From a candidate division TM6 bacterium UASB340 (GTDB taxonomy: Bacteria; Babelota; Babeliae; Babelales; UASB340): a DNA stretch of 64,000 nucleotides. The translations under genes and the position numbers were made by a program. Positions 19,285 through 31,396 of the stretch are shown here, piece after piece. Within the stretch, counting starts at the first letter, position 1, and each line of letters starts with the position of its first letter. Below the pieces are notes generated by a model. It saw nothing but the letters and a program-made list of their open reading frames with translations, was not told the DNA's origin and did no database searches. The stretch lies in contig LDIX01000003.1 of assembly GCA_001468925.1 (NCBI GenBank), positions 3,018 to 67,017 of the forward strand, written 5' to 3'.

Positions 19285-20415
19285 ATGGCAATTCAAGCAG
19301 GTTTAGTTGGGCTTCCAAATGTTGGTAAATCAACACTTTTTAATGCACTTACAAAAGCAGGCATTCCTGCAGAAAATTATCCATTTTGTACAATAGACCC
19401 ACACATTGCAATAACAAATGTACCTGATAAAAGATTGGAAAAATTGGCACAAATATTTGGTTCTCAAAAAATCATACCTACCAGTGTGCAATTTTGTGAT
19501 ATTGCAGGACTTGTAAAAGGTGCTGCAACAGGTGAAGGGCTTGGAAACCAGTTTTTATCAAATATTATGGGGGTAGATCTAATAATTCATGTATTGCGTT
19601 GTTTTGAAGATAAAAATGTAATGCATGTTCACGATCACCTTGATCCAATAGATGATTTTGAAGTAATTACTTCCGAATTAATGTTAAAAGATTTAGAATC
19701 GTTAGAAAAAAAAGAAGAAAAATTGAACGCTTTATTAAAAAGTGCAAAAAATAAAAATTTCACACCGGCACAAGTAAAAGAGCTTGAGCAGGAACTTGAG
19801 TTAGTCTTAAAAATTAAAAAATTTATAGGCTCAGGAGATTTTTACGCAGTTCAAAAAACCGTAAAAGAATATGCTCTAAATAATATAAAAACAGTAGATC
19901 TTTTAAGTGCAAAAAATTTTATAATAGTTGCAAATATTTCTGAAGATGATTTACAGAACAAAAACTATCTAAATAATGAATATTATAAAAAATTAGTAGA
20001 AAAATTTGGCGCCGATAAAGTTATAGCAATATCTGCAAAAATTGAATCTGAGCTATCTTTATTATCAGATGAAGATAAAAAAGAAATGCTTGAATCTTTA
20101 GATATTGAAGAATCCGGTCTTGATAAAATTATAAGACTTACTTATAAAAATTTAGGTTTAATTACATTTTTTACATGTGGGCCAAAAGAAGCTCACGCTT
20201 GGAGTTTGCGTCAAAATACAAAAGTCCCTCAAGCTGCCGGAGAAATTCATTCTGATTTGGAAAGAGGCTTTATTTGCGCTGTTGTTTATAATTACACAGA
20301 TATTGTAGAAGCAGGAAGTGAAGCTAAACTTCGAGATACCGGTAAAATGCGTACAGAAGGTAAAGATTATATTGTAAAAGATGGCGACTTGCTTTTAATA
20401 AGATTTAACGTTTAA
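19285..20415 (+). CDS. ychF: ribosome-binding ATPase YchF
   Basis: G1 motif GLPNVGKSTLFNA, a coiled-coil insertion, and a C-terminal TGS-type domain ending DGDLLLIRFNV. Confidence 0.92.
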   Translation: MAIQAGLVGLPNVGKSTLFNALTKAGIPAENYPFCTIDPHIAITNVPDKRLEKLAQIFGSQKIIPTSVQFCDIAGLVKGAATGEGLGNQFLSNIMGVDLIIHVLRCFEDKNVMHVHDHLDPIDDFEVITSELMLKDLESLEKKEEKLNALLKSAKNKNFTPAQVKELEQELELVLKIKKFIGSGDFYAVQKTVKEYALNNIKTVDLLSAKNFIIVANISEDDLQNKNYLNNEYYKKLVEKFGADKVIAISAKIESELSLLSDEDKKEMLESLDIEESGLDKIIRLTYKNLGLITFFTCGPKEAHAWSLRQNTKVPQAAGEIHSDLERGFICAVVYNYTDIVEAGSEAKLRDTGKMRTEGKDYIVKDGDLLLIRFNV

Positions 20416-22301
20416 GAATTTAAACTTTCCCATAGAGCTAAATTTTCGTTTAGCTCTTTTTCTATTTTATTCATGCTATCAAAAGTACTTTTATATTCCT
20501 GAGAACCGTATTCTAAATTTTCAAATTTTTTGGTTAATTCTTCAAGCTCTTTTTCAAGTTTATCTATTTTAGATTCTAAATTTCTAATTTTTTTTCTTTT
20601 TTCATAATCTGCAATACCTGAATTACTGTTTAAATTACGAACTAACAAATTTTGAGAAGCTTTTTTTACTTTAGATTCAATAACTTGAGCGTCATGTAAA
20701 ATCTCTTTTTGAGCATTCTTTTGAACCAAAAAAGCGTCGTAATTTCCTTTATATTTATAGCTGGAATCTTGTTTTAATTCTATTATCGAAGTTGCCAAAT
20801 TATTTAAAAAATCTCGATCATGAGAAACAAATAAAATAGTTCCCGAATAATCTTTTAGAACTTGTAATAAAACTTCTTTGGATTGAATATCCAAGTGGTT
20901 TGTTGGCTCGTCTAAAATTAAAAAATTGGCATCTGCTAATAAAACTTTTACCATTGCCACTCTGTTTTTTTCGCCGCCACTAAGCACAGAAATATATTTT
21001 TCAACATCTTCACCTGAAAACAAAAAGGCTCCGAGATAAGCTCTAACTTTTTGTCTTTGCTCTGTAGTCTTGCAAGCAGACTCGACTTCAGTCAAAATAT
21101 CATTTTTAGGATTTAAAGATTTATTTTGATCTTGTTCAAAAAATGCCGGAAAAGTATTATATCCAAACTCAAATGAACCTGAATCTGCTTTTAATTTTGA
21201 CATAATTACATTTAATAAAGTTGATTTACCTTGTCCATTTGGAGCTACAATTGCAACCTTTTCGCCTCTTTCAATTTCAAATGAAACATTTTCAAATATT
21301 TTTTTCTCACCAAAATATTTTGATAATTTTTTTACAATCAAACCTATTTTTCCGCTTTTTTTTATTTCACCAAAATTTATTCGAACGGTTTTTTGTCCCG
21401 GTTCAAGTTTTATAATTTCAATTTTTTCTAACGCCTTTAACTTGCTTTGCGCCATACTGGATTTTGTGGCACTTGCTCTGAACCGATCGATAACGGCCAT
21501 TTCTTTTTTCAAAAATTTTTGTTGCTCTATATATTTTTTTTCTAAAAGCTCTTCTCTTTCTTTTTTTTGAATCAAGTAGCTTGAATAATTTCCAGTATAT
21601 ATATTAAGTTTTCCAAGTGATAGTTCATAAATTTGTGTACATAATTTATCTAAAAAATATTTATCATGAGAAACGAGCATAAATCCAAAATTTGAATTTT
21701 TTAAGAAGCTTAAAAACCAATCTTTAGCTGTCAAATCCAAATGATTTGTAGGTTCATCAAGTAAATAAAAGTCAGCTTTTTGCAGTAATAGTTTTGCCAA
21801 AACCAAACGCATTTTCCAACCGACAGATAGAGTTGAGACTGAATTTTCAAGATCTTTTTCTAAAAATCCCAAACCTAATAAAATATTTTTGGATTCAAGA
21901 ATCTTTTTTTGATAATCAAATTCATCAAGTTTATGGTGTAACTCGGCATAACGCTCAACTATTTTTGTATCGTTATTTTCAAGTTGTTTTTCTAATTCCC
22001 AAAATTCATAAATTAAATCGCCAAGATTATTATTAAAACTGTTAATACATTCAATTAATATTGATTTTTCAGAAACCAAGACAACGTTTTGTGGCAAATA
22101 TGCAACTTTTTTATCTTTTTGTGTTTCTATAAAACCGGAATCAAAACCTGATTGACCGGATATTATTGAAAGTAATGTCGTTTTACCGGCACCATTTCGT
22201 CCGACAAGGCCTATTCGCTGGTCTGTATTTAATGTAAACGAAATATTATCAAATATTACCTGTGAACCAAAATTTAAATTTAAATCTTTTGCAATAAACA
22301 T
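20412..22301 (-). CDS. ABC-F family ATPase (two ABC cassettes, no TM domain, C-terminal coiled coil)
   Basis: Walker A motifs GRNGAGKTT and APNGQGKST, signatures LSVGW/LSGGE, and a Lys/Glu-rich C-terminal tail as in Uup/YheS-type ABC-F proteins. Shares TTAA with the ychF stop. Confidence 0.88.
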   Translation of the reverse strand: MFIAKDLNLNFGSQVIFDNISFTLNTDQRIGLVGRNGAGKTTLLSIISGQSGFDSGFIETQKDKKVAYLPQNVVLVSEKSILIECINSFNNNLGDLIYEFWELEKQLENNDTKIVERYAELHHKLDEFDYQKKILESKNILLGLGFLEKDLENSVSTLSVGWKMRLVLAKLLLQKADFYLLDEPTNHLDLTAKDWFLSFLKNSNFGFMLVSHDKYFLDKLCTQIYELSLGKLNIYTGNYSSYLIQKKEREELLEKKYIEQQKFLKKEMAVIDRFRASATKSSMAQSKLKALEKIEIIKLEPGQKTVRINFGEIKKSGKIGLIVKKLSKYFGEKKIFENVSFEIERGEKVAIVAPNGQGKSTLLNVIMSKLKADSGSFEFGYNTFPAFFEQDQNKSLNPKNDILTEVESACKTTEQRQKVRAYLGAFLFSGEDVEKYISVLSGGEKNRVAMVKVLLADANFLILDEPTNHLDIQSKEVLLQVLKDYSGTILFVSHDRDFLNNLATSIIELKQDSSYKYKGNYDAFLVQKNAQKEILHDAQVIESKVKKASQNLLVRNLNSNSGIADYEKRKKIRNLESKIDKLEKELEELTKKFENLEYGSQEYKSTFDSMNKIEKELNENLALWESLNS

Positions 22302-22310
22302 TAAAAGCCT

Positions 22311-23456
22311 TTATACAGCAATCCCACGTTTTTTAAGACTCTTTTGAGAATAAAAGATTCTTTTACTTTGTTCAAGCGCCTCTTTTTGCAAAAGATAATA
22401 AAAAAACTCACGATCAGGGCCTTTAACAACTGCAGCTTCATGAGCTTGAGCTAAAACTACCGGATAACCCATCCCCTTTTCAACCTGATCAAGAGCAATA
22501 GATGCAATAAAATCAAGTTTACTACTATCATTTACAATCCATGAAAAAGTTTCAACACGAATAATCTCTTTTTCCGTATTTAAATAAAAAAAACATGGTT
22601 TTAGATGTTCCGGATAAGAATCTACAATTTTAGATTTACTAAAAAAAATAGTTGATCGATAATTTTTTGGTAAAAAAAATTTTGTAACCTGTGAATCTAT
22701 TAAACTATCAACAACTTTACATGGAAAATCGTTATAAATCCTGTGACATGATATGCATTCTGCATAATCGAATCGACACAATCCAAGCTTTATAAGATTT
22801 ACAAGCTCACGACTTTTTGGAAAACTTATAACTCCTGCAATTAGCTTATTTTGTTCATAAAATTTATTTAAAATATTTATATATAAATTCAAAAAAAAAT
22901 TTTTAACTTCATCTACTTTGCCTTCCAACGGCCAAAAAATTACAGTTCCATCAACTAATGATAAATCAATATTGTTTTCTACTGACAACTCAAGTAAACG
23001 CGAAAGCTCTAATTCTTCACGCTTAAAATCTACCAAATCTTGAGAAAAAGAAATTTTCTCATTTTTATCAATAAGCTTTTGTGTTAAAAAAAGTTTAGGT
23101 TCTGAATAAAATTTAACTTCACTTTTGTCAGAATATTTTATACTACACCCACCAATATTTATTAAAAAGCATCCGGCTCCGGATATGTTTCTGTCAGGAT
23201 ATATTTGGGATCCATCGATTGCAATAACAGAATAATCTGTTTCAATTTTATTAACCTTAAAAATATTAGATAAATTATTTTGCCAAGATGGCAACAGAAA
23301 ACTACTTTTTGATAACTCAACCTTTTCTTTAAAATTATCTTGATTGGATATTTTGTCCCAAGTTTTTTGTGCTATATCAGACTCATAAGCCAAATTGGGA
23401 AAAAGCTTTTCTGAAACTTTTTTAAATTCTATTAAAAGACTATTTTTATTAAGCAT
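22311..23456 (-). CDS. NurA-like nuclease domain protein (tentative)
   Basis: VIAIDGSQIYPD and LSLVDGTVIFWP resemble the two Asp-bearing DGS/DGT motifs of NurA. The C-terminal GYPVVLAQAHEAAVV resembles the YP..L..A(D/H) motif. Both judged from memory. Confidence 0.45.
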   Translation of the reverse strand: MLNKNSLLIEFKKVSEKLFPNLAYESDIAQKTWDKISNQDNFKEKVELSKSSFLLPSWQNNLSNIFKVNKIETDYSVIAIDGSQIYPDRNISGAGCFLINIGGCSIKYSDKSEVKFYSEPKLFLTQKLIDKNEKISFSQDLVDFKREELELSRLLELSVENNIDLSLVDGTVIFWPLEGKVDEVKNFFLNLYINILNKFYEQNKLIAGVISFPKSRELVNLIKLGLCRFDYAECISCHRIYNDFPCKVVDSLIDSQVTKFFLPKNYRSTIFFSKSKIVDSYPEHLKPCFFYLNTEKEIIRVETFSWIVNDSSKLDFIASIALDQVEKGMGYPVVLAQAHEAAVVKGPDREFFYYLLQKEALEQSKRIFYSQKSLKKRGIAV

Positions 23457-23469
23457 AAAAACACCTAAA

Positions 23470-23513
23470 ATAATTAAGGGATGTCACAAGTTAATGTAAC
23501 ATCCCTTAATTAT
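23470..23513 (-). terminator. Hairpin ATAATTAAGGGATGT-14 nt-ACATCCCTTAATTAT after the 23542 gene
   Basis: Perfect 15-bp inverted repeat between two co-directional genes. Confidence 0.55.
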
Positions 23514-23541
23514 TTGTCTTTAATAAAATAATTTTTTAGAA

Positions 23542-24078
23542 TTATTCAGATTTATTTTTTAATGAATCAATTTTCTCAGTTAATTCATCAATCTTATCTG
23601 ATAATTTATCAAGTTTATTTTCTATATTTTCAATTTTTTCATTTGTAACGTTAGATTTTCCACCCTCAACAGTAACTTCTTCATACTTAATTGTTGTCTT
23701 TTCATCTTGAGTATTAGAATCTTCTTCTTCAACCTGAGGTATAGTATCTTTCTTTATTAACTCATCAACAGCCTTTTCAGATTCTTTTAAATCTTGAGTT
23801 TTCAACTCTTGAGTTGCTAATTCAGAAGTAGTATCGGGCTGAGCTTCTTTTACATCAGCAAAAACATCCACAGATTTTTGATCAACCGAAACATCACCAA
23901 AATTAATTTCCGGCGCTTTATCTATATCTTGATCTATCTCTTGAGCCAGATCAACTGCACTATTAATCGTAGCAGTCTCATCCGGTTGAGTTATATCTGC
24001 AACTTGTGATTTTGCACTAAAATCAAGAGTGCCAAAAACAAACAGTAACATAAAAATATTTTTACTAATCTTATTCAT
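23542..24078 (-). CDS. Secreted acidic protein with a C-terminal coiled coil
   Basis: GGGGAG RBS, signal peptide MNKISKNIFMLLFVFGTLDFSA, Asp/Glu/Gln/Thr-rich body, and a heptad-like tail NIENKLDKLSDKIDELTEKIDSLK. Confidence 0.55.
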   Translation of the reverse strand: MNKISKNIFMLLFVFGTLDFSAKSQVADITQPDETATINSAVDLAQEIDQDIDKAPEINFGDVSVDQKSVDVFADVKEAQPDTTSELATQELKTQDLKESEKAVDELIKKDTIPQVEEEDSNTQDEKTTIKYEEVTVEGGKSNVTNEKIENIENKLDKLSDKIDELTEKIDSLKNKSE

Positions 24079-24193: not shown

Positions 24194-24829
24194 CTAATTT
24201 TGATTGTTTCGATAGATAAAAAATTGACCCAAAAACACTAAATTTACCAAAATTCCACGAAAATTGTTCACAATTAGAGGTATTGGTATATTCAAAAGAA
24301 AATTTGCCGAAATTTCACAAAAATTAGCGCTAAGAGATATTAAAATAAAATAAAAACTAAAACCATGTACTGACTTATTTCTGTAAATTTTAAATATTTG
24401 CGGTAATTTTTTCCAAAAGCCAATTCCCACAGGAATCCATCCAATTAAATATGCATAGGAATAAAATTTAAAATATATTAAGTAACCAATAAAAAACAAA
24501 ATAAATATATTTAAAATAAAAATAGAAAAAAATTTTATTTCTTTATCCAAATTATTCTGAGAATATTTAAATCGTTGAAATATAATAAAGCTAACTAAAA
24601 ACGTATAGATTATATTAATTATTTTATAACCAATTGGTAAATTGTTTGCAAAGCTATAAATAAGATAAAAATAACCGGAATTTAGTAATGTCAAAATAAA
24701 AACAGTACTAAGACCATTTGTAGATTTTATTTTATAATTCAATAAAATTTGTGGTATAAGACTCGAAATAAAAAATAAATTAGAAACAATAATTAAAAAA
24801 TTTGCTAAAAATATTTTGTTTAAAAGCAT
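24194..24829 (-). CDS. 7-TM PQ-loop repeat transporter, paralogue 1
   Basis: Two PQ-loop motifs: LIPQILLNYKIKSTNGLS and KLPQIFKIYRNKSVHGFS. About 7 hydrophobic segments. Confidence 0.8.
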   Translation of the reverse strand: MLLNKIFLANFLIIVSNLFFISSLIPQILLNYKIKSTNGLSTVFILTLLNSGYFYLIYSFANNLPIGYKIINIIYTFLVSFIIFQRFKYSQNNLDKEIKFFSIFILNIFILFFIGYLIYFKFYSYAYLIGWIPVGIGFWKKLPQIFKIYRNKSVHGFSFYFILISLSANFCEISANFLLNIPIPLIVNNFRGILVNLVFLGQFFIYRNNQN

Positions 24830-24831
24830 GC

Positions 24832-25524
24832 TTAATCTTGCTTAACTTCCAAAGGTAATAATTCCGGTTTATCTAAAATATAGTTGTGTCTAAATTTATA
24901 ATTCCAAAATTGAAAAATAAATATGAAATATACTAACACACCTCTGGATGCAATCAAGTGCGTTTGCAATGGAAGATTCAATAAATATGCAGCAAACCAA
25001 TCAATCATATTTCCAATTCCTACAAAAGATACTAAAAAAAAGCTAAACCCTTCGACAGATTTAGTCCTTTGTATCTTTAATAACTGAGGAATTTGATAGA
25101 CTGACCATATTATAACCAAAGCCCAACCAATGATATGCCCGGCAATAATTGGGTTTAAATTTAAAATAAAAGATACAAAAATTAAAAATAAAAAATTATA
25201 TAAATACATATTTTTTATTTTAGTATTCAAACTATCGCGACCATATAAAAATCTTTGATAAACCAAAATAGATATTACAAATAATGCCAAAGTCGATCTA
25301 ATTTTATAAGCTAAATGAAAATTTAAAGAGAACATGTATAAAACATTAAAAACATAACCGTCAAAATAAAACATTATATAGAGGTCACTCAAGCCTCTTA
25401 TTGATTTATTTTTGTAATTTAAATAAACCTGAGGCCAAACAGCAAGAACAAAGAAAATATTGACAACCCAGGTGATTATGGTTGTCAATAATGAAGCGTT
25501 AGTCACTTTGGCCCCCCAAGACAA
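24832..25524 (-). CDS. 7-TM PQ-loop repeat transporter, paralogue 2
   Basis: VWPQVYLNYKNKSIRGLS and QIPQLLKIQRTKSVEGFS. TTG start with an AGGGAAG RBS. Its stop is 2 nt before the paralogue 1 ATG. Confidence 0.8.
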   Translation of the reverse strand: MSWGAKVTNASLLTTIITWVVNIFFVLAVWPQVYLNYKNKSIRGLSDLYIMFYFDGYVFNVLYMFSLNFHLAYKIRSTLALFVISILVYQRFLYGRDSLNTKIKNMYLYNFLFLIFVSFILNLNPIIAGHIIGWALVIIWSVYQIPQLLKIQRTKSVEGFSFFLVSFVGIGNMIDWFAAYLLNLPLQTHLIASRGVLVYFIFIFQFWNYKFRHNYILDKPELLPLEVKQD

Positions 25525-25646
25525 CTTTTACTTCCCTAAAAATTTTCCCCCTCACAATGGTAGTATAAAATTTATCCATATTTAAAAACAAGTTTTTTTA
25601 TTTTTTAATATTTTACTTTTAAATAAATGGTTTTTAGTAATTTTAA

Positions 25647-26246
25647 TTATTTAAATTTAATAAACTGTAACAAATAAATCAAATATACAAAAATACCATT
25701 TAAATTATTCAGATAAGTTTGCGGCGGTAACCCCAAAAAAAGAGCTACTATAAATTCAACAAAATTACCAAAACCAATCATAGAAACCAATCCAAAGCTT
25801 AGACCTTTTATAGATCTATTTTGATAATTTTTAAATAATTGAGGAATTTGATAAATTGCCCAAATCAGCATCATTATCCAACCGGAAGCATGTCCAACAA
25901 AAAAACTATTTTTTATAGATAAAAATAATAAAAATATAAAAAACAAAATACTAAATATAAAGAAAATTTTAAAACCTATATCTTTTGATTCAGAATAATA
26001 AAATCTTTGAAAAACTAATGTTAAAACAGCAAAAAATGCAAGCGGCACCATAATCTTATGAGCTAGCGGCAAATTAAGACAAAAAACATAAAACATGTAA
26101 AAACTGTAACCGTAAAAATAGCCTATAAATAAAAAATCGCTCAAACCTTTGGTTGATTTTCGATTAAAATTAAGCCTAATTTGAGGCAAAAGCCCAAAAA
26201 AGAATATGATTTGTGCTATCCATGGAAAAAAATTATTAAAATTCAT
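25647..26246 (-). CDS. 7-TM PQ-loop repeat transporter, paralogue 3
   Basis: LLPQIRLNFNRKSTKGLS and QIPQLFKNYQNRSIKGLS. I mapped seven hydrophobic segments by eye. Confidence 0.8.
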   Translation of the reverse strand: MNFNNFFPWIAQIIFFFGLLPQIRLNFNRKSTKGLSDFLFIGYFYGYSFYMFYVFCLNLPLAHKIMVPLAFFAVLTLVFQRFYYSESKDIGFKIFFIFSILFFIFLLFLSIKNSFFVGHASGWIMMLIWAIYQIPQLFKNYQNRSIKGLSFGLVSMIGFGNFVEFIVALFLGLPPQTYLNNLNGIFVYLIYLLQFIKFK

Positions 26247-26253
26247 AAAGCTC

Positions 26254-26481
26254 TCATACTTTTTCTAAATATTTTTTGTAAATATTTTTCAACAAAATCA
26301 AACTATTTAAATCTACAAACTCTTCGTCACTATGAATACCTCCCCCAATGGGGTCCATTATTATACATGGAAAATTCTTTTGAGTAAAAAATCTTCCATC
26401 TGAAGCCGTATTACAGTTTATAATATCTATATTACTGCGTAAAATATCCGTAATTTTTAGATTAAAATTATCGAGTTTACG
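26254..26481 (-). pseudogene. 3'-terminal remnant of an M20-family (DapE/ArgE-like) peptidase gene
   Basis: Minus-frame translation RKLDNFNLKITDILRSNIDIINCNTASDGRFFTQKNFPCIIMDPIGGGIHSDEEFVDLNSLILLKNIYKKYLEKV*. TSDGRF...GP...IH..(N/D)E.V....L pattern of M20 C-termini, from memory. No start codon or N-terminal part; an in-frame stop lies at 26482-26484. Confidence 0.55.
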
Positions 26482-26680: not shown

Positions 26681-26902
26681 ATGCCAAAATTTGATGGAAC
26701 AGGGCCAAGAGGTTTAGGATCAGGAACAGGAAGAGGTCATGGTATGTGCAATAATAATGCCAGAAGAGGTCAAGGTTTCGGATTCGGTAGGGGACGAGGT
26801 CTTGGTCAAGTAGACAATTCAGAAATAGAAGACATTAAACTTAAGAATCAAAAATTAGAACAAGAAATAGAAATTTTGAAAAACATTTTAAGTTCAAAAT
26901 AA
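26681..26902 (+). CDS. DUF5320-family small Gly/Arg-rich protein with a C-terminal coiled coil
   Basis: MPKFDGTGPRGLGSGTGRGHGMCNN...GQGFGFGRGRGLGQ followed by IEDIKLKNQKLEQEIEILKNIL. The N-terminal MPxxDGTGPxGxGxxTGRGxGxC pattern matches DUF5320 as I remember it. Confidence 0.7.
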   Translation: MPKFDGTGPRGLGSGTGRGHGMCNNNARRGQGFGFGRGRGLGQVDNSEIEDIKLKNQKLEQEIEILKNILSSK

Positions 26903-26903
26903 A

Positions 26904-27179
26904 ATGGCAAGACCAAAAAAAATAAGGTTATTAAGGGGTATTCCAAAAGTTAAATATTTCAAACCCAAAGGAATACCTCTTAGCATATTGGAAGAAGTAT
27001 GCTTAACTCATGATGAATTTGAAGCCATAAAACTTTATCACGTAAAAAATTTACAACAAATTCAGGCCGCGCAACAAATGAATATATCACAACCAACATT
27101 TGCCAGAACACTTTGTTATGCCCATAAAAAAATAGCCAATGCGTTAGTTAACGGATTGGCTATTAAAATTGAGATCTAA
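26904..27179 (+). CDS. DUF134 (UPF0251) predicted HTH DNA-binding protein
   Basis: MARPKKIRLLRGIPKVKYFKPKGIPLSILEEVCLTHDEFEAIKLYHVKNLQQIQAAQQMNISQPTFARTLCYAHKKIANALVNG is collinear with the DUF134 consensus (YFKP.GIP...LEEV.LT.DE.EA.RL...). The start lies 1 nt after the upstream stop. Confidence 0.75.
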   Translation: MARPKKIRLLRGIPKVKYFKPKGIPLSILEEVCLTHDEFEAIKLYHVKNLQQIQAAQQMNISQPTFARTLCYAHKKIANALVNGLAIKIEI

Positions 27180-27191
27180 TTGTAAACAAAA

Positions 27192-28148
27192 TTACAATAT
27201 TTTTTTTACAAATTTTAAAGAAATCGCCGCGAATTGAACTTGAATAATAAATGCAACTGATATGATAAGGGCCGAAATACCGGCATTGGGTCCAAAAGTA
27301 GTCATTGCAATAGCAAGAGCAATTGAAAGATTTCTCATAACAGATCCATAAATTAATGCGGAACCATCATATTTATCAAAAAACATTTTTGCCGCAAAAA
27401 AACTTATCATAAAATTAATTATATAAAACAATATTACAGGTACAATAATTTTAATTAATAATTCAGGATGCATATATATAATTTTAGATTTTAAAGCTAT
27501 TGCAACAAAAACAATTCCTAAAACACCCAAGATCGATACCGAAGATATTTTTGGTATAAAATTTTTATTAAATTTTTCTTTATCAAATGATTTAAGTAAA
27601 AAATATTTTGTTAATTGACCTAAAATTAATGGTAAAAATATAACTAAAAAAATCTGTTTAAAAATTATAACAAGAGAAAATTCTACAGCTGTACCCATAA
27701 AAAATTTTATATAAAATGGAGTTGCAATAGAACCTAACAAAAGGCCAATCAATGTCATAATAACTGACGCATTTATATTACCATTGGCAAAACCGGTCCA
27801 TGTTATTGTCATACCGCTTGTTGGCAAAAGTGCAGATAAAAATAATCCCAAGAAAAGCATATTCTGATCTTTAAAAAATAAAAATCCCAAACCATATGCA
27901 ACTATAGGAATTATCAAAAAATTTATAATTTGAGTTATTATATGCAATTTATAATTTTTAATATTTAAAAGTTGCATAAAATCCAAATCTATCATCATTG
28001 GAAATATCATTAAAAAAGTAAACGGCATTATTAAATTCGACAAAAAATTTGATGAAAAAATTAAACCATAAATAAACCCAAGTAACATGCTTACCGTTAT
28101 TGCCATACTTAAGTTTTTCTTAACGCTAAACAAAACTTTTAAAAACAT
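27192..28148 (-). CDS. BART-superfamily membrane transporter (BASS/SBF-like or ACR3-like), about 10 TM
   Basis: LPTSGMTITWTGFANGNINASVIMTLIGLLLG aligns with the BASS motif (P...T..A.G(D/N)(V/I)..SV.MT....LL). ATG at 28148 follows a GGTGGGG RBS. The track TTG start at 28163 is an alternative. Confidence 0.65.
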   Translation of the reverse strand: MFLKVLFSVKKNLSMAITVSMLLGFIYGLIFSSNFLSNLIMPFTFLMIFPMMIDLDFMQLLNIKNYKLHIITQIINFLIIPIVAYGLGFLFFKDQNMLFLGLFLSALLPTSGMTITWTGFANGNINASVIMTLIGLLLGSIATPFYIKFFMGTAVEFSLVIIFKQIFLVIFLPLILGQLTKYFLLKSFDKEKFNKNFIPKISSVSILGVLGIVFVAIALKSKIIYMHPELLIKIIVPVILFYIINFMISFFAAKMFFDKYDGSALIYGSVMRNLSIALAIAMTTFGPNAGISALIISVAFIIQVQFAAISLKFVKKIL

Positions 28149-28169
28149 AACACACCCCACCAAGAAAAT

Positions 28170-28222: not shown

Positions 28223-29758
28223 TTATTTACTTTTATTATAATTTAAAACAAATTCAGAAAGCAGTCTAACGCCTGCACCCGAAGCGCCCTTTCCAATATA
28301 ACTAACACCGGGAACTCCATCTGCAGTTCCTGCAATATCCAAATGGGCCCATTTTGATTTTTCTACAAAATTTTTCAAAAACCAAGAAGCTGTAATTGTT
28401 CCGGCTTTGTAATTTGCAGCACCTGTATTTGCGATATCTGCAACTTCAGATTTGATGGCATCTTTAAAGTCTTCATCCATAGGCAGCGGCCAAACTCTAT
28501 CTCCTGTAACAAGACCAACAGCCTGAAGTTTTGTACCAATATCATCATTTCTAGTCATAAGGCCCGTAAAAAAATGTCCCAAAGCATAAAGACAGGCACC
28601 TGTCAAAGTTGCAATATCTATAATCACTTCCGGATTATAAAATTTTTCTGCATAAGAAAGAGCATCTGCCAAAATTAATCGACCTTCAGCATCAGTATTT
28701 TTTATTTCAGCCGTTTTGCCGTTTAAAAATCTAATAATATCATCTTGCCTGCAAGCTTTACCACTTGGCATATTTTCAACAAGCGGTGTAATTGCAACAA
28801 CATGAACATTCGGTTTTAATTGCGCAATAATTTTCATAGCACCATAAACAGCTGCGGCTCCGGACATATCAAATTTCATTCCGGTCATATAATCCGAAGG
28901 TTTTAAACTTATTCCACCGGAATCAAATGTTACGCCTTTTCCAACAAGTGCAATCGTTGGTATATCTTTTTTATCAGAGTTATATTCTAAAACAACAAAC
29001 TGAGGTTCATTGTCTGACCCTGAGCTTACAGCCAAAAATCCACCCATTGAAAGTTTTTCAGCATCTTTTTTTTCTAAAACTTTACATTCCAAATCGTATT
29101 CATCTGCTAAATTTTTTGCTTCTTGCGCTAAAGCTTTAGGCGTTAAATAATTTGCGGGTAAATCTGCTAAATTTCTTGTAAAATTTGTAGCATTACCAAT
29201 TACAATACCTTCCTGCAATCCAATTGCAAAAGTTTGTTCTTGTTTAGCCCCAACATAAAGTAAAAGTTTTCCTGTAAAGCCTGCTTCATTAATTTTATCG
29301 GATTTAAATTTTATAAATTCATAGTCAGCCATAATTGCCGCAATAACAATTTGTCTTATTAGTCTATCTCGTATGAGACCAAATGGTTTATCATCTTCAG
29401 GCAAACAAATTACCGTATCTTTAATTTCTAACTCTTTTAATTTTAAAACAATCGATCCAATTGCTCGCCTTAGATTTTCAAGTTCATAATTCCAAGCAGT
29501 ATCCAATTTACCTAGACCAACAAAAATTAATTGAATTAATTTATTATCTTTATTTGCAGTCAAAACGAATAAATCGCCTTTTTTTCCGGTAAATTTATGT
29601 TTTTTCAAAATTTCTCTTAAATTTGGATAAAAATCTTTTTCAATACGCTCAAAATCACTTTGCAAATTAATTGAATAAAGACCTTCTTTTAATAAAAAAA
29701 CATAACCTTCAACTTGGTTTTCCCAAAATTTTTTTTCTGTAATTTGAATCTCAAACAT
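28223..29758 (-). CDS. pepA: leucyl aminopeptidase (M17)
   Basis: M17 signature NTDAEGRL (IKNTDAEGRLILADAL), plus VGKGVTFDSGG and DMSGAAAV metal-ligand regions. Confidence 0.93.
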   Translation of the reverse strand: MFEIQITEKKFWENQVEGYVFLLKEGLYSINLQSDFERIEKDFYPNLREILKKHKFTGKKGDLFVLTANKDNKLIQLIFVGLGKLDTAWNYELENLRRAIGSIVLKLKELEIKDTVICLPEDDKPFGLIRDRLIRQIVIAAIMADYEFIKFKSDKINEAGFTGKLLLYVGAKQEQTFAIGLQEGIVIGNATNFTRNLADLPANYLTPKALAQEAKNLADEYDLECKVLEKKDAEKLSMGGFLAVSSGSDNEPQFVVLEYNSDKKDIPTIALVGKGVTFDSGGISLKPSDYMTGMKFDMSGAAAVYGAMKIIAQLKPNVHVVAITPLVENMPSGKACRQDDIIRFLNGKTAEIKNTDAEGRLILADALSYAEKFYNPEVIIDIATLTGACLYALGHFFTGLMTRNDDIGTKLQAVGLVTGDRVWPLPMDEDFKDAIKSEVADIANTGAANYKAGTITASWFLKNFVEKSKWAHLDIAGTADGVPGVSYIGKGASGAGVRLLSEFVLNYNKSK

Positions 29759-29773
29759 ATTTTTTACCCCGTT

Positions 29774-30157
29774 TTAATTTTTTTTAAATGCCGCTTTTAA
29801 AGCCTCTAATGACAGTAAAGCACACTTAATTCTATTTGGTCCCAATGGAATACCAACAAGTTTTACAATATCATCTTTTCCAATATTTAATATTTCTTCA
29901 GGTGTTTTTCCAATGCAACTTTGTAACAACATTGATGCCGATGCCTGGCTCACAACGCATCCTGAACCTGAAAAGCCTAACTCTTTTATTTTTAATTGAT
30001 CTGAATTTTTATTTTCAAATTTTCCCTCAATCAAAATACTATCTCCACAAGATGGATTCTGTTGTCCGCTTGAAAAATCAGGATTTTCAATTGTTTTTCG
30101 ATATTTAGAATTTTTAAAATGCTCCATCAATTTTTCTTGATAAACATTATCACTCAT
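29774..30157 (-). CDS. sufU: Fe-S cluster assembly scaffold, SufU/IscU-type
   Basis: NPSCGDSI, GSGCVVSQASASM and IKCALLSLEAL are the three conserved Cys regions of SufU-type scaffolds. Directly downstream of sufS. Confidence 0.85.
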   Translation of the reverse strand: MSDNVYQEKLMEHFKNSKYRKTIENPDFSSGQQNPSCGDSILIEGKFENKNSDQLKIKELGFSGSGCVVSQASASMLLQSCIGKTPEEILNIGKDDIVKLVGIPLGPNRIKCALLSLEALKAAFKKN

Positions 30158-30160
30158 TTT

Positions 30161-31396
30161 TTACTTTCTAAAAAAATTTACAGTCTCATTTAATTTATCT
30201 AAAAAAATTTCAACATCTTGCACTGTGTTATAAATATAAAAACTTGCTCGCACTGATGATTGTAAATTAAGCATATTTGCCAAAGGTTGTGCACAATGAT
30301 GTCCACTGCGAACTGAAATATTAAGGCCTCCTAAAAAACCACTAATATCATGTGCATGAATATCCGGCAAAGAAAAACTTACCAGATGCCCACTTTTTTT
30401 GATTTGCTCAATATTACCCCAAATTTTCATATCTTTTATTTTTAATAAGCCATCAATTAACATAGAAGATAAATATGCCGTATGTTTTTCAAATTCTTTA
30501 AAATCAACATTTTCATTTAAATATTTCACAGCAGCACCAAGACCTATCGCTTGAGATATTGCCGGAGTTCCGGCTTCAAATTTATATGGAGCTTCCTTCC
30601 AAATTACATCATTAAAAGATGCTGCTTGTACCATTGAGCCACCAACTTTGTATGGTTCTACTTTATTATGCAAACTTTTATTTATATACAAAATACCTAT
30701 ACCTGTAGGGCCTAACATTTTGTGCCCGGATAGTACTAAAAAATCTATATTTAATTTTTTTACGTCTATTTTTTTGTATGGTGCAAGCTGAGAAGCATCA
30801 AGTAGAACCAATGCCCCAATATCATGTGCTGCGGATATAATATTTTCAAGTTGATTTTCTTTCCAGATTTCACCAAGCACATTGGAGCTTGCAGAAATTG
30901 AAACAAGTTTTATTTTATCAGACCAAAAATTAGCTTCCGGTAATTTAATAAAAAAAGTATCTTTATCCAATTCTAAAAACTTTAATTTAGCACCACTATT
31001 TTTACAAATTCTTAACCATGGCAAAAAATTTGCATGATGCTCAACTTGTGTTGTAACAATATAATCGTTTTTTTCTATATTTTGTCTTGCCCATGCATCA
31101 GCAATAAAATTTACACCTTCGGTTGTACCGGATGTAAAAATTATTTCTTCATTTTCTGCATTTAAAAATTTTGCAATTATTTCTCTTGAATTTTCAAAAA
31201 AACAAGTTGAGGTTTCCCCCAACTCATGAATCGATCTATGTACATTTGAATTATAGTTTTCATAAAAATCTACCATAGATTGAATAACAGATCGTGGTTT
31301 TTGAGTTGTTGCTGCATTATCTAAATAAACAAGATTTTTTTTATTTTGAAAAATTGGAAAATCTTTTTTTAGCAATTTTGCATCAAACTTAACCAT
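30161..31396 (-). CDS. sufS: cysteine desulfurase (group II, SufS-like)
   Basis: PLP-lysine motif LSGHKMLGPTGIG and catalytic Cys in RSGHHCAQP. AGGAGA RBS. Confidence 0.9.
   Translation of the reverse strand: MVKFDAKLLKKDFPIFQNKKNLVYLDNAATTQKPRSVIQSMVDFYENYNSNVHRSIHELGETSTCFFENSREIIAKFLNAENEEIIFTSGTTEGVNFIADAWARQNIEKNDYIVTTQVEHHANFLPWLRICKNSGAKLKFLELDKDTFFIKLPEANFWSDKIKLVSISASSNVLGEIWKENQLENIISAAHDIGALVLLDASQLAPYKKIDVKKLNIDFLVLSGHKMLGPTGIGILYINKSLHNKVEPYKVGGSMVQAASFNDVIWKEAPYKFEAGTPAISQAIGLGAAVKYLNENVDFKEFEKHTAYLSSMLIDGLLKIKDMKIWGNIEQIKKSGHLVSFSLPDIHAHDISGFLGGLNISVRSGHHCAQPLANMLNLQSSVRASFYIYNTVQDVEIFLDKLNETVNFFRK

Follow-up and report, generated by a model that had tools for sequence, protein, structure and literature searches.

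Three tandem genes in a 64,000-nucleotide stretch of DNA from the candidate division TM6 bacterium UASB340 (contig LDIX01000003.1, positions 3,018 to 67,017; hereafter the window) encode members of the PQ-loop superfamily (Pfam PF04193, clan MtN3-like), and we conclude that these proteins, P3, P2 and P1, are ancient paralogues of a short (~200-230 amino acids, aa) seven-helix carrier family characteristic of the phylum Dependentiae. Judged from sequence, the best explanation of their function, to which we give a probability of roughly 55%, is that they serve as importers of host amino acids with paralogue-specific selectivity. The source organism belongs to Candidatus Dependentiae and is an obligate intracellular bacterium, in keeping with the host-associated lifestyle supposed in a preliminary description of this DNA made from its letters alone.

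The assignment to the superfamily follows from domain content, fold and predicted topology. PF04193 matches each protein twice, scoring 71-83 bits where the cut-off is 22 (E-values of 3.4e-22 for P3, 8.4e-20 for P2 and 1.2e-23 for P1), so the resemblance goes far beyond chance. The preliminary description had named PF04193 and the MtN3/SWEET model (MtN3_slv, PF03083) as checks on its assignment, and only the former holds, since PF03083 gives no match at E ≤ 0.01 in any of the three proteins. They also score 22-34 bits with the NCBIfam LCT model TIGR00951 (cut-off 192; a gammaproteobacterial relative reaches 47) and 21-27 bits with the SemiSWEET_2 model NF037968 (cut-off 80). P1-P3 thus lie outside the curated eukaryotic LCT subfamily, the SWEET family and the SemiSWEET family alike. 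The basic gene structure is as first described: three minus-strand open reading frames (ORFs) of 199, 230 and 211 aa, with all six of the cited motif strings present verbatim and P1 starting 2 nucleotides (nt) after the stop of P2. The spacer between P3 and P2 is 122 nt. The length of P2 is counted from a TTG start; an in-frame GTG at 25506 would give 224 aa and fits the near-identical 224-aa protein annotated by NCBI in the same 90% cluster. No further PQ-loop gene was found in the 64-kb window with a hidden Markov model (HMM) of the family.

An AlphaFold2 model of P1, built on a 61-sequence family alignment, has a pLDDT of 93.7 and a pTM of 0.88 and contains helices at residues 5-34, 42-61, 66-89, 94-119, 123-151 (broken at P143-Q144), 159-179 and 183-210. 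It predicts a 3+1+3 protein in which two three-helix bundles are joined by a linker helix, as in the cystinosin/SWEET fold, and in which helices 1 and 5 are bent at the PQ hinge. P2 and P3 were placed by alignment to P1, which extends over nearly their whole length. The two halves of P1 are an internal repeat in register (residues 4-90 against 121-207; hhalign probability 98.7%, E 1.7e-16), and PQ is conserved in 92-100% of the 61 family members. Foldseek comparison of the P1 model with the PDB returned human cystinosin (E 2e-5, template modelling score, TM, 0.70), Arabidopsis cystinosin (E 7e-5, TM 0.67), AtSWEET13 (TM 0.69), OsSWEET2b (TM 0.74) and the KDEL receptor (TM 0.54-0.61), all at 12-18% identity. 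Loop lysines and arginines number 9.4 on the PQ-loop/C-terminal side and 0.84 on the N-terminal side, and since this positive-inside bias holds in 61 of 61 members, the predicted topology is N-out/C-in with both PQ loops in the cytoplasm, which matches the eukaryotic proteins. The claim of full-length, double PQ-loop, seven-helix proteins therefore stands, directly for P1 and by alignment for P2 and P3. An artefactual fusion of two genes for three-transmembrane (3-TM) proteins is ruled out by the continuous reading frame, the confidently modelled linker helix and more than 100 full-length homologues.

Distribution and age of the tandem array

Word-indexed protein searches give little idea of the extent of this family: they returned only 3 and 12 matches, the close homologues being a metagenome scaffold (72%) and a Candidatus Dependentiae metagenome-assembled genome (54%), and NCBI lists proteins of the same 90% clusters as 'PQ-loop repeat-containing protein [Candidatus Dependentiae bacterium]'. 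The family becomes visible only through an exhaustive profile search, which among 1.84 billion cluster representatives found 2308 proteins at E ≤ 1e-3, 492 at E ≤ 1e-10 and, with family clusters defined at 50% identity, at least 120 at E ≤ 1e-30. Nearly all of the best 150 profile matches are 200-230 aa long and are matched end to end. A scan of species-genome contigs with two peptide patterns yielded nine loci, a lower bound, of which four are labelled Dependentiae/TM6, three come from low-GC Gammaproteobacteria, and one each is labelled 'Pseudomonadota' and 'Verrucomicrobia'. For the further loci L012-L016 and L018 the taxonomy was assigned from synteny alone. Arrays in Dependentiae hold two PQ-loop genes (L005), three (L006, L007, L016 and L018), four (L001 and L012) or five (L004).

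Two of these labels deserve comment. L007 (CAYVQB010000008.1), filed as uncultured Pseudomonadota, has 32% guanine plus cytosine (GC) and three tandem PQ-loop genes, two of which fall inside orthogroups OG-P1 and OG-P2 while the third branches beside OG-P1; the Pseudomonadota label looks wrong. L011 (JABDDU010000026.1), from a Verrucomicrobia assembly, shares its gene order with L008 and L017, two Coxiellaceae-like loci, and encodes a 689-aa VTT/PAP2/LssY protein with 62% identity to that of L008, so that this contig is probably mis-binned.

The array itself is old. P1, P2 and P3 share only 33-34% pairwise identity, whereas P2 and P3 are 68-70% identical to their orthologues in L005 (P3, 70.5%). 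In a neighbour-joining tree of 34 family members the three proteins fall into three different groups, in each of which several other genomes (L001, L004, L005, L006 and L007) are represented by one or two members; P3, for example, groups with orthologues from L005, L001, L004 and L006. The tree, a simple distance-based one, carries no support values; its grouping agrees with the gene order and with group-specific residues. The order P3-P2-P1-NurA is kept across those Dependentiae genomes. Taken together, the separate orthogroups, the conserved order and the low identity between paralogues indicate that the duplications predate the divergence of these genomes. A recent local duplication is thereby ruled out, and the earlier suggestion that the family had expanded locally has to be given up.

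Substrate pocket, proposed function and origin

Residues are numbered here as in P1, and pocket positions were assigned by alignment to the SemiSWEET 4rng, not by measured distances. Across the 61-member alignment the conserved residues are N31, Y68-K/R69, Q85, W131, K147, E172 and Q202. K/R69, at the outer end of helix 3, is basic in 92% of members, against the positive-inside trend, and Q85 and Q202 sit where helices 3 and 7 reach the cytoplasm. E172, half-way along helix 6, is acidic (Glu or Asp) in 95% of members. P2 has Asp there, as do the Coxiellaceae-like gammaproteobacterial proteins, which carry a second Asp at position 55. In SemiSWEETs the sugar pocket is formed by a Trp/Asn pair (PMC4309421). 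When each half is aligned to 4rng with HMMs, the Trp positions correspond to Y55 and E172 and the Asn positions (72 and 188) are not conserved across the family, from which we conclude that a SWEET-type sugar site is absent. Positions 55, 72 and 188 are instead specific to orthogroups, being Y, N and N in OG-P1, N, A or S, and I in OG-P2, and Y, V and N in OG-P3, a pattern that fits paralogues with different substrates.

We propose that P1-P3 would act as secondary carriers that alternate access by a 'binder-clip' movement, a cycle described for SemiSWEETs (PMC4309421) and implied here by the PQ hinge and the two-bundle fold. They would carry host metabolites that are small and polar, zwitterionic or cationic, amino acids being the likeliest, into the bacterial cytoplasm, and each paralogue would have its own substrate preference. 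The direction of uptake is suggested by the predicted N-out topology combined with a cystinosin-like direction of transport, from lumen to cytosol. E172 (Asp in P2), together with K69, may contact the substrate, a coupling proton or both, in parallel with cystinosin, where an aspartate of TM helix 6 serves as binding site for a proton and for the amino group of the ligand (PMC9385667). The choice of amino acids rests on the N-out/C-in topology, the conserved acidic pocket residue, the neighbouring genes for peptidases and amino-acid transporters, and the auxotrophy of the phylum, which lacks amino-acid biosynthesis and relies on import (PMC4776705, PMC6561590). Among such neighbours, the single PQ-loop gene of L013 lies with three BrnQ genes, an NhaC-type antiporter and an amino-acid ABC system, and that of L015 adjoins an NhaC-type carrier, GltX, an SDF/GltP-type carrier and an AA_permease. 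Of the earlier idea that the proteins exchange amino acids or sugars with the host, exchange of small metabolites stays the most plausible role.

Several points weigh against import of amino acids. The evidence from the neighbourhood is circumstantial, and in the window the aminopeptidase is parted from the array by inserted genes. The neighbours in the Coxiellaceae-like clade are lipB-lipA and, in L008, thiamin pyrophosphokinase, with no amino-acid genes. The pocket residues were placed through the SemiSWEET alignment rather than from model coordinates, and E172 aligns seven residues beyond the position of cystinosin D305 on the same helix; E172 as a positional homologue of D305 was accordingly rejected, and the parallel with cystinosin would be functional, not positional. 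Published reconstructions of Dependentiae metabolism, finally, credit ABC and other permeases with amino-acid uptake and never mention PQ-loop proteins.

Other substrates have to be weighed against amino acids, and after these we rank other cationic or zwitterionic metabolites (thiamine and other vitamins, polyamines, choline or nucleoside-like compounds), followed by sugars. Import of such metabolites, by analogy with vitamin carriers of the PnuC type, which are related in structure, would suit the conserved mid-membrane acidic residue, of which the Coxiellaceae-like clade has two, and Dependentiae also lack cofactor and nucleotide biosynthesis (PMC4776705). The L008 gene lies near thiamin pyrophosphokinase and lipB-lipA, a proximity that could hint at a cofactor-related substrate in the Coxiellaceae-like clade, but the thiamin pyrophosphokinase neighbour was seen in one lineage only and lies on the opposite strand. 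Since the genes that keep recurring beside PQ-loop genes in Dependentiae encode peptidases and amino-acid carriers, and since no PnuC structure appears among the fold matches at E ≤ 10, we regard this alternative as possible but doubtful. That the proteins are SWEET-like uniporters equilibrating host hexoses or disaccharides into the bacterium seems unlikely to us, although OsSWEET2b and AtSWEET13 match the fold as well as cystinosin does (TM 0.69-0.75), a SemiSWEET is among the best PDB sequence matches (4rng, E 1.6e-6) and Dependentiae keep a partial glycolysis (PMC4776705). Set against this are the lack of a PF03083 match despite the strong PQ-loop signal, the replacement of the Trp/Asn pair by Y55/E172 and non-conserved residues, a buried conserved carboxylate with Lys/Arg that would be unusual in a neutral-sugar uniporter, and the absence of carbohydrate genes among the neighbours inspected.

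It is also conceivable, if very improbable, that P1-P3 are not solute carriers but receptors or handlers of lipid-linked sugars, as are the KDEL receptor and MPDU1. The KDEL receptor is among the fold matches, and P2 has a weak match to Pfam ER_lumen_recept (E 0.006, below the cut-off). That receptor, however, gives the weakest similarity among matches of this fold and lacks the PQ motifs that are near-invariant in the family, bacteria have no KDEL retrieval pathway, and tandem paralogues with pocket-specific substitutions fit substrate diversification. Import of host amino acids remains the reading we prefer.

The origin of the seven-helix form is a separate matter, on which the preliminary description had proposed a eukaryote-like family, acquired or retained. 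It had taken the double-repeat layout as typical of eukaryotes; the layout is indeed best known there, but rare bacterial 7-TM forms have already been published (PMC5742349, PMC5972207). Capture from a host of a lysosomal-type gene, amplified locally thereafter, could account for this layout and for the carriers found, which are protist-associated intracellular lineages (Dependentiae and Coxiellaceae-like). The nearest eukaryotic proteins found, moreover, are fungal cystinosin-like and PQLC2/Ypq-like, with E-values of 1e-14 to 1e-17 (1e-48 to 1e-69 for the family in the same search), and share the Q...Y motif that ends both halves. The family is nevertheless about equally far from eukaryotic halves, a SemiSWEET and its own opposite half. 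In the PDB its profile matches cystinosin (5.6e-7) and SemiSWEET 4rng (1.6e-6) essentially alike, and HMMs of the half-repeats give fungal halves (from three sequences) 21-43 bits without favouring N against N or C against C; 4rng receives 29-36 bits, and the opposite half within the family a median of 30-33 bits. Further points against host capture are the TIGR00951 scores far below cut-off, the GC content of the PQ-loop genes, which is in line with that of the genome (window ~28%), the exclusion of local or recent amplification by the orthogroups, conserved order and low paralogue identity, and the argument of Jia et al. that fusion can occur inside bacteria (PMC5972207). We consider host capture with local amplification improbable, and the comparison of halves lends the claim of acquisition from eukaryotes no support. 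The sequence evidence fits a eukaryotic and a bacterial origin alike, whether by ancient transfer in either direction or by independent bacterial fusion. A joint reading, which we offer only tentatively, would see an old, purely bacterial lineage confined to protist-dwelling bacteria (Dependentiae and Coxiellaceae-like) that shares one fusion ancestor with the eukaryotic lysosomal PQ-loop transporters, the 7-TM gene having passed from one of these two sets of carriers to the other early in the coevolution of parasites and eukaryotes, and whose three to five specialised paralogues per genome would be proton-coupled importers draining host amino-acid pools.

Neighbouring genes and the peptidase remnant

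The array lies in a syntenic block (Table 1). In L012 and L018 the order is IscS-NifU-M17 leucyl aminopeptidase-[PQ array]-NurA-(one gene)-ABC-F, most of the block is present in L001, and the window keeps IscS, NifU, the aminopeptidase, the array, NurA and ABC-F in that shared order. In L012 the aminopeptidase gene runs into the first PQ-loop gene, the stop of the one overlapping the start of the other. Between the aminopeptidase and the array the window has three genes (26681-28163), for a DUF5320 protein, a DUF134 protein and an ACR3/SBF-type transporter, and because the aminopeptidase abuts the array in L012 and L018, they look to have been inserted into an ancestral unit of aminopeptidase and PQ-loop genes. 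At the other end, the last PQ-loop gene adjoins NurA directly in L001, L012 and L018, whereas in the window a 178-aa ORF without a Pfam match lies between them. A hairpin downstream of this ORF, found by a consensus scan only, is a candidate terminator of a transcription unit that would include the PQ-loop genes. A promoter scan gave 26 sites against 28 expected from shuffled sequence in this AT-rich DNA, hence no excess. A few genes from the PQ array of L012 (10480-11904), a Dependentiae-like contig, lies a gene for a 474-aa protein with RING-type zinc fingers (zf-rbx1, zf-RING_2). Zinc fingers of this type are typical of eukaryotic E3 ubiquitin ligases, and the protein is a candidate host-manipulation effector.

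Table 1. Features of the PQ-loop region, in window coordinates
Feature	Position	Strand	Remarks
IscS	30161-31396		window neighbour
NifU	29774-30157		window neighbour
M17 leucyl aminopeptidase	28223..29758	-	context anchor
ACR3/SBF-type transporter	27192-28163	-	
DUF5320 gene	26681-26902	+	
DUF134 gene	26904-27179	+	
M20/DapE-type peptidase C-terminal remnant	26254..26481	-	~75 codons; profile matches; after in-frame stops
P3	25647..26246	-	199 aa, ATG start; double PQ-loop ORF; orthogroup OG-P3; PQ at residues 21-22 (26181-26186) and 135-136 (25839-25844)
P2	24832..25524	-	230 aa, TTG start; double PQ-loop ORF; orthogroup OG-P2; PQ at residues 31 (25429-25434) and 146 (25084-25089)
P1	24194..24829	-	211 aa, ATG start; double PQ-loop ORF; orthogroup OG-P1; copy nearest NurA; PQ at residues 26 (24749-24754) and 143 (24398-24403)
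178-aa ORF	23542-24078	-	between P1 and NurA; N-terminal signal-like segment, acidic coiled-coil-like body
Hairpin	23468..23515	-	20-bp stem and T-rich tail; candidate terminator
NurA-domain protein	22311..23456	-	context anchor; conserved downstream neighbour of the array in Dependentiae
ABC-F	20412-22301		window neighbour

Upstream of P3 the preliminary description had placed a decayed M20 peptidase gene at a distance of 8 nt. A remnant is indeed present after in-frame stops, and its TGA ends 7 nt before the P3 ATG. It matches only the C-terminal end of M20/DapE profiles (PRK08554, E 3.7e-9, profile positions 375-442 of 446; PF01546, E 8e-4). Yet it is not simply decaying, since the TM6 genome of L005 (4351-4497) has the same truncated M20 C-terminus upstream of its P3 orthologue, there with the TGA overlapping the ATG, and the last 48 codons have been kept open: the window copy (26254-26400) aligns with it over these 48 codons with no indel and 71% aa identity. 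Differences between the two copies fall at the three codon positions as 11/6/20, the same pattern as in the P3 gene itself (40/27/83), which suggests that the remnant evolves as a translated ORF, unlike a neutral pseudogene. It is possibly a leader ORF coupled to P3.

Relation to described proteins and significance

The eukaryotic SLC66/LCT proteins (cystinosin and PQLC2/Ypq1-3; class 2.A.43 of TCDB) share with the Dependentiae proteins two PF04193 repeats, seven helices in a 3+1+3 arrangement, the PQ hinge in helices 1 and 5, a non-cytoplasmic N-terminus (predicted here), the Q...Y motif that closes helices 3 and 7 on the cytoplasmic side and an acidic cavity residue in helix 6, and they are the best structural matches of the P1 model. 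They are, however, only 14-18% identical to the Dependentiae proteins, which are far shorter at ~200 aa, have no luminal N-terminal domain or sorting motifs, carry the signature Y68-K/R69 with E/D172 and are encoded in operon-like bacterial tandem arrays. SemiSWEETs (3-TM homodimers; PDB 4rng, 4qnc, 4x5m) are likewise bacterial and have the same PQ hinge, and each half of the Dependentiae protein aligns full-length with a protomer (29-36 bits; TM 0.89 for a half), but the Dependentiae proteins fuse two repeats with a linker helix and do not conserve the Trp/Asn sugar pocket.

Closer in form are the ~20 bacterial seven-helix proteins of the clan reported by Jia et al. in 2017 and 2018 (PMC5742349, PMC5972207), for which duplication and fusion of a 3-TM unit within bacteria was argued. 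These proteins were chosen for the MtN3_slv motif, with the Pseudoalteromonas 'PaSWEET' as an example, whereas the Dependentiae family has no MtN3_slv match, extends over a phylum and occupies a conserved syntenic block in arrays of two to five paralogues; no mention of Dependentiae was found in the passages retrieved from the two papers. The closest outgroup in the distance tree is the set of Coxiellaceae-like 7-TM PQ-loop proteins (L008-L011 and L017), which agree in length, in architecture, in the helix-3 Y-R and in the helix-6 Asp. They differ in having 24-26% identity to the Dependentiae proteins, a second Asp at the Y55 position, a non-conserved W131 position and a single gene copy adjoining lipB-lipA. 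This single gene is always divergent from lipB-lipA (L008:5238-7735, L017:3974-6645). A search seeded with a gammaproteobacterial protein returned 103 clusters, and the named ones are Gammaproteobacteria or Coxiellaceae.

P1-P3 are thus an uncharacterised but annotated branch of a well-known family. The generic NCBI annotation of these proteins and the existence of bacterial 7-TM forms are already known. In the library searched we found no paper pairing 'PQ-loop' with Dependentiae, and likewise none describing these proteins for Legionella or Coxiella, nor did we find a description of the phylum-wide Dependentiae family, of its tandem orthogroups and synteny, of the Coxiellaceae-like sister clade or of the K/R69 and E/D172 signature. 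The structural literature on PQ-loop proteins still describes their bacterial homologues as 3-TM units that must dimerise, and reserves the hepta-helical form for eukaryotes (PMC9385667). In contrast, a whole phylum of obligate intracellular bacterial parasites has fused 7-TM versions, in several conserved paralogues and beside peptidase genes. If these proteins are amino-acid importers, they would close a gap in what has been reconstructed of Dependentiae metabolism, where ABC systems and permeases are named but these genes are not. They would also provide small (~200 aa) bacterial models of lysosomal PQ-loop transporters, which may be easier to express for biochemistry, and would add a data point on how often, and where, a 3-TM unit became a fused 7-TM carrier.

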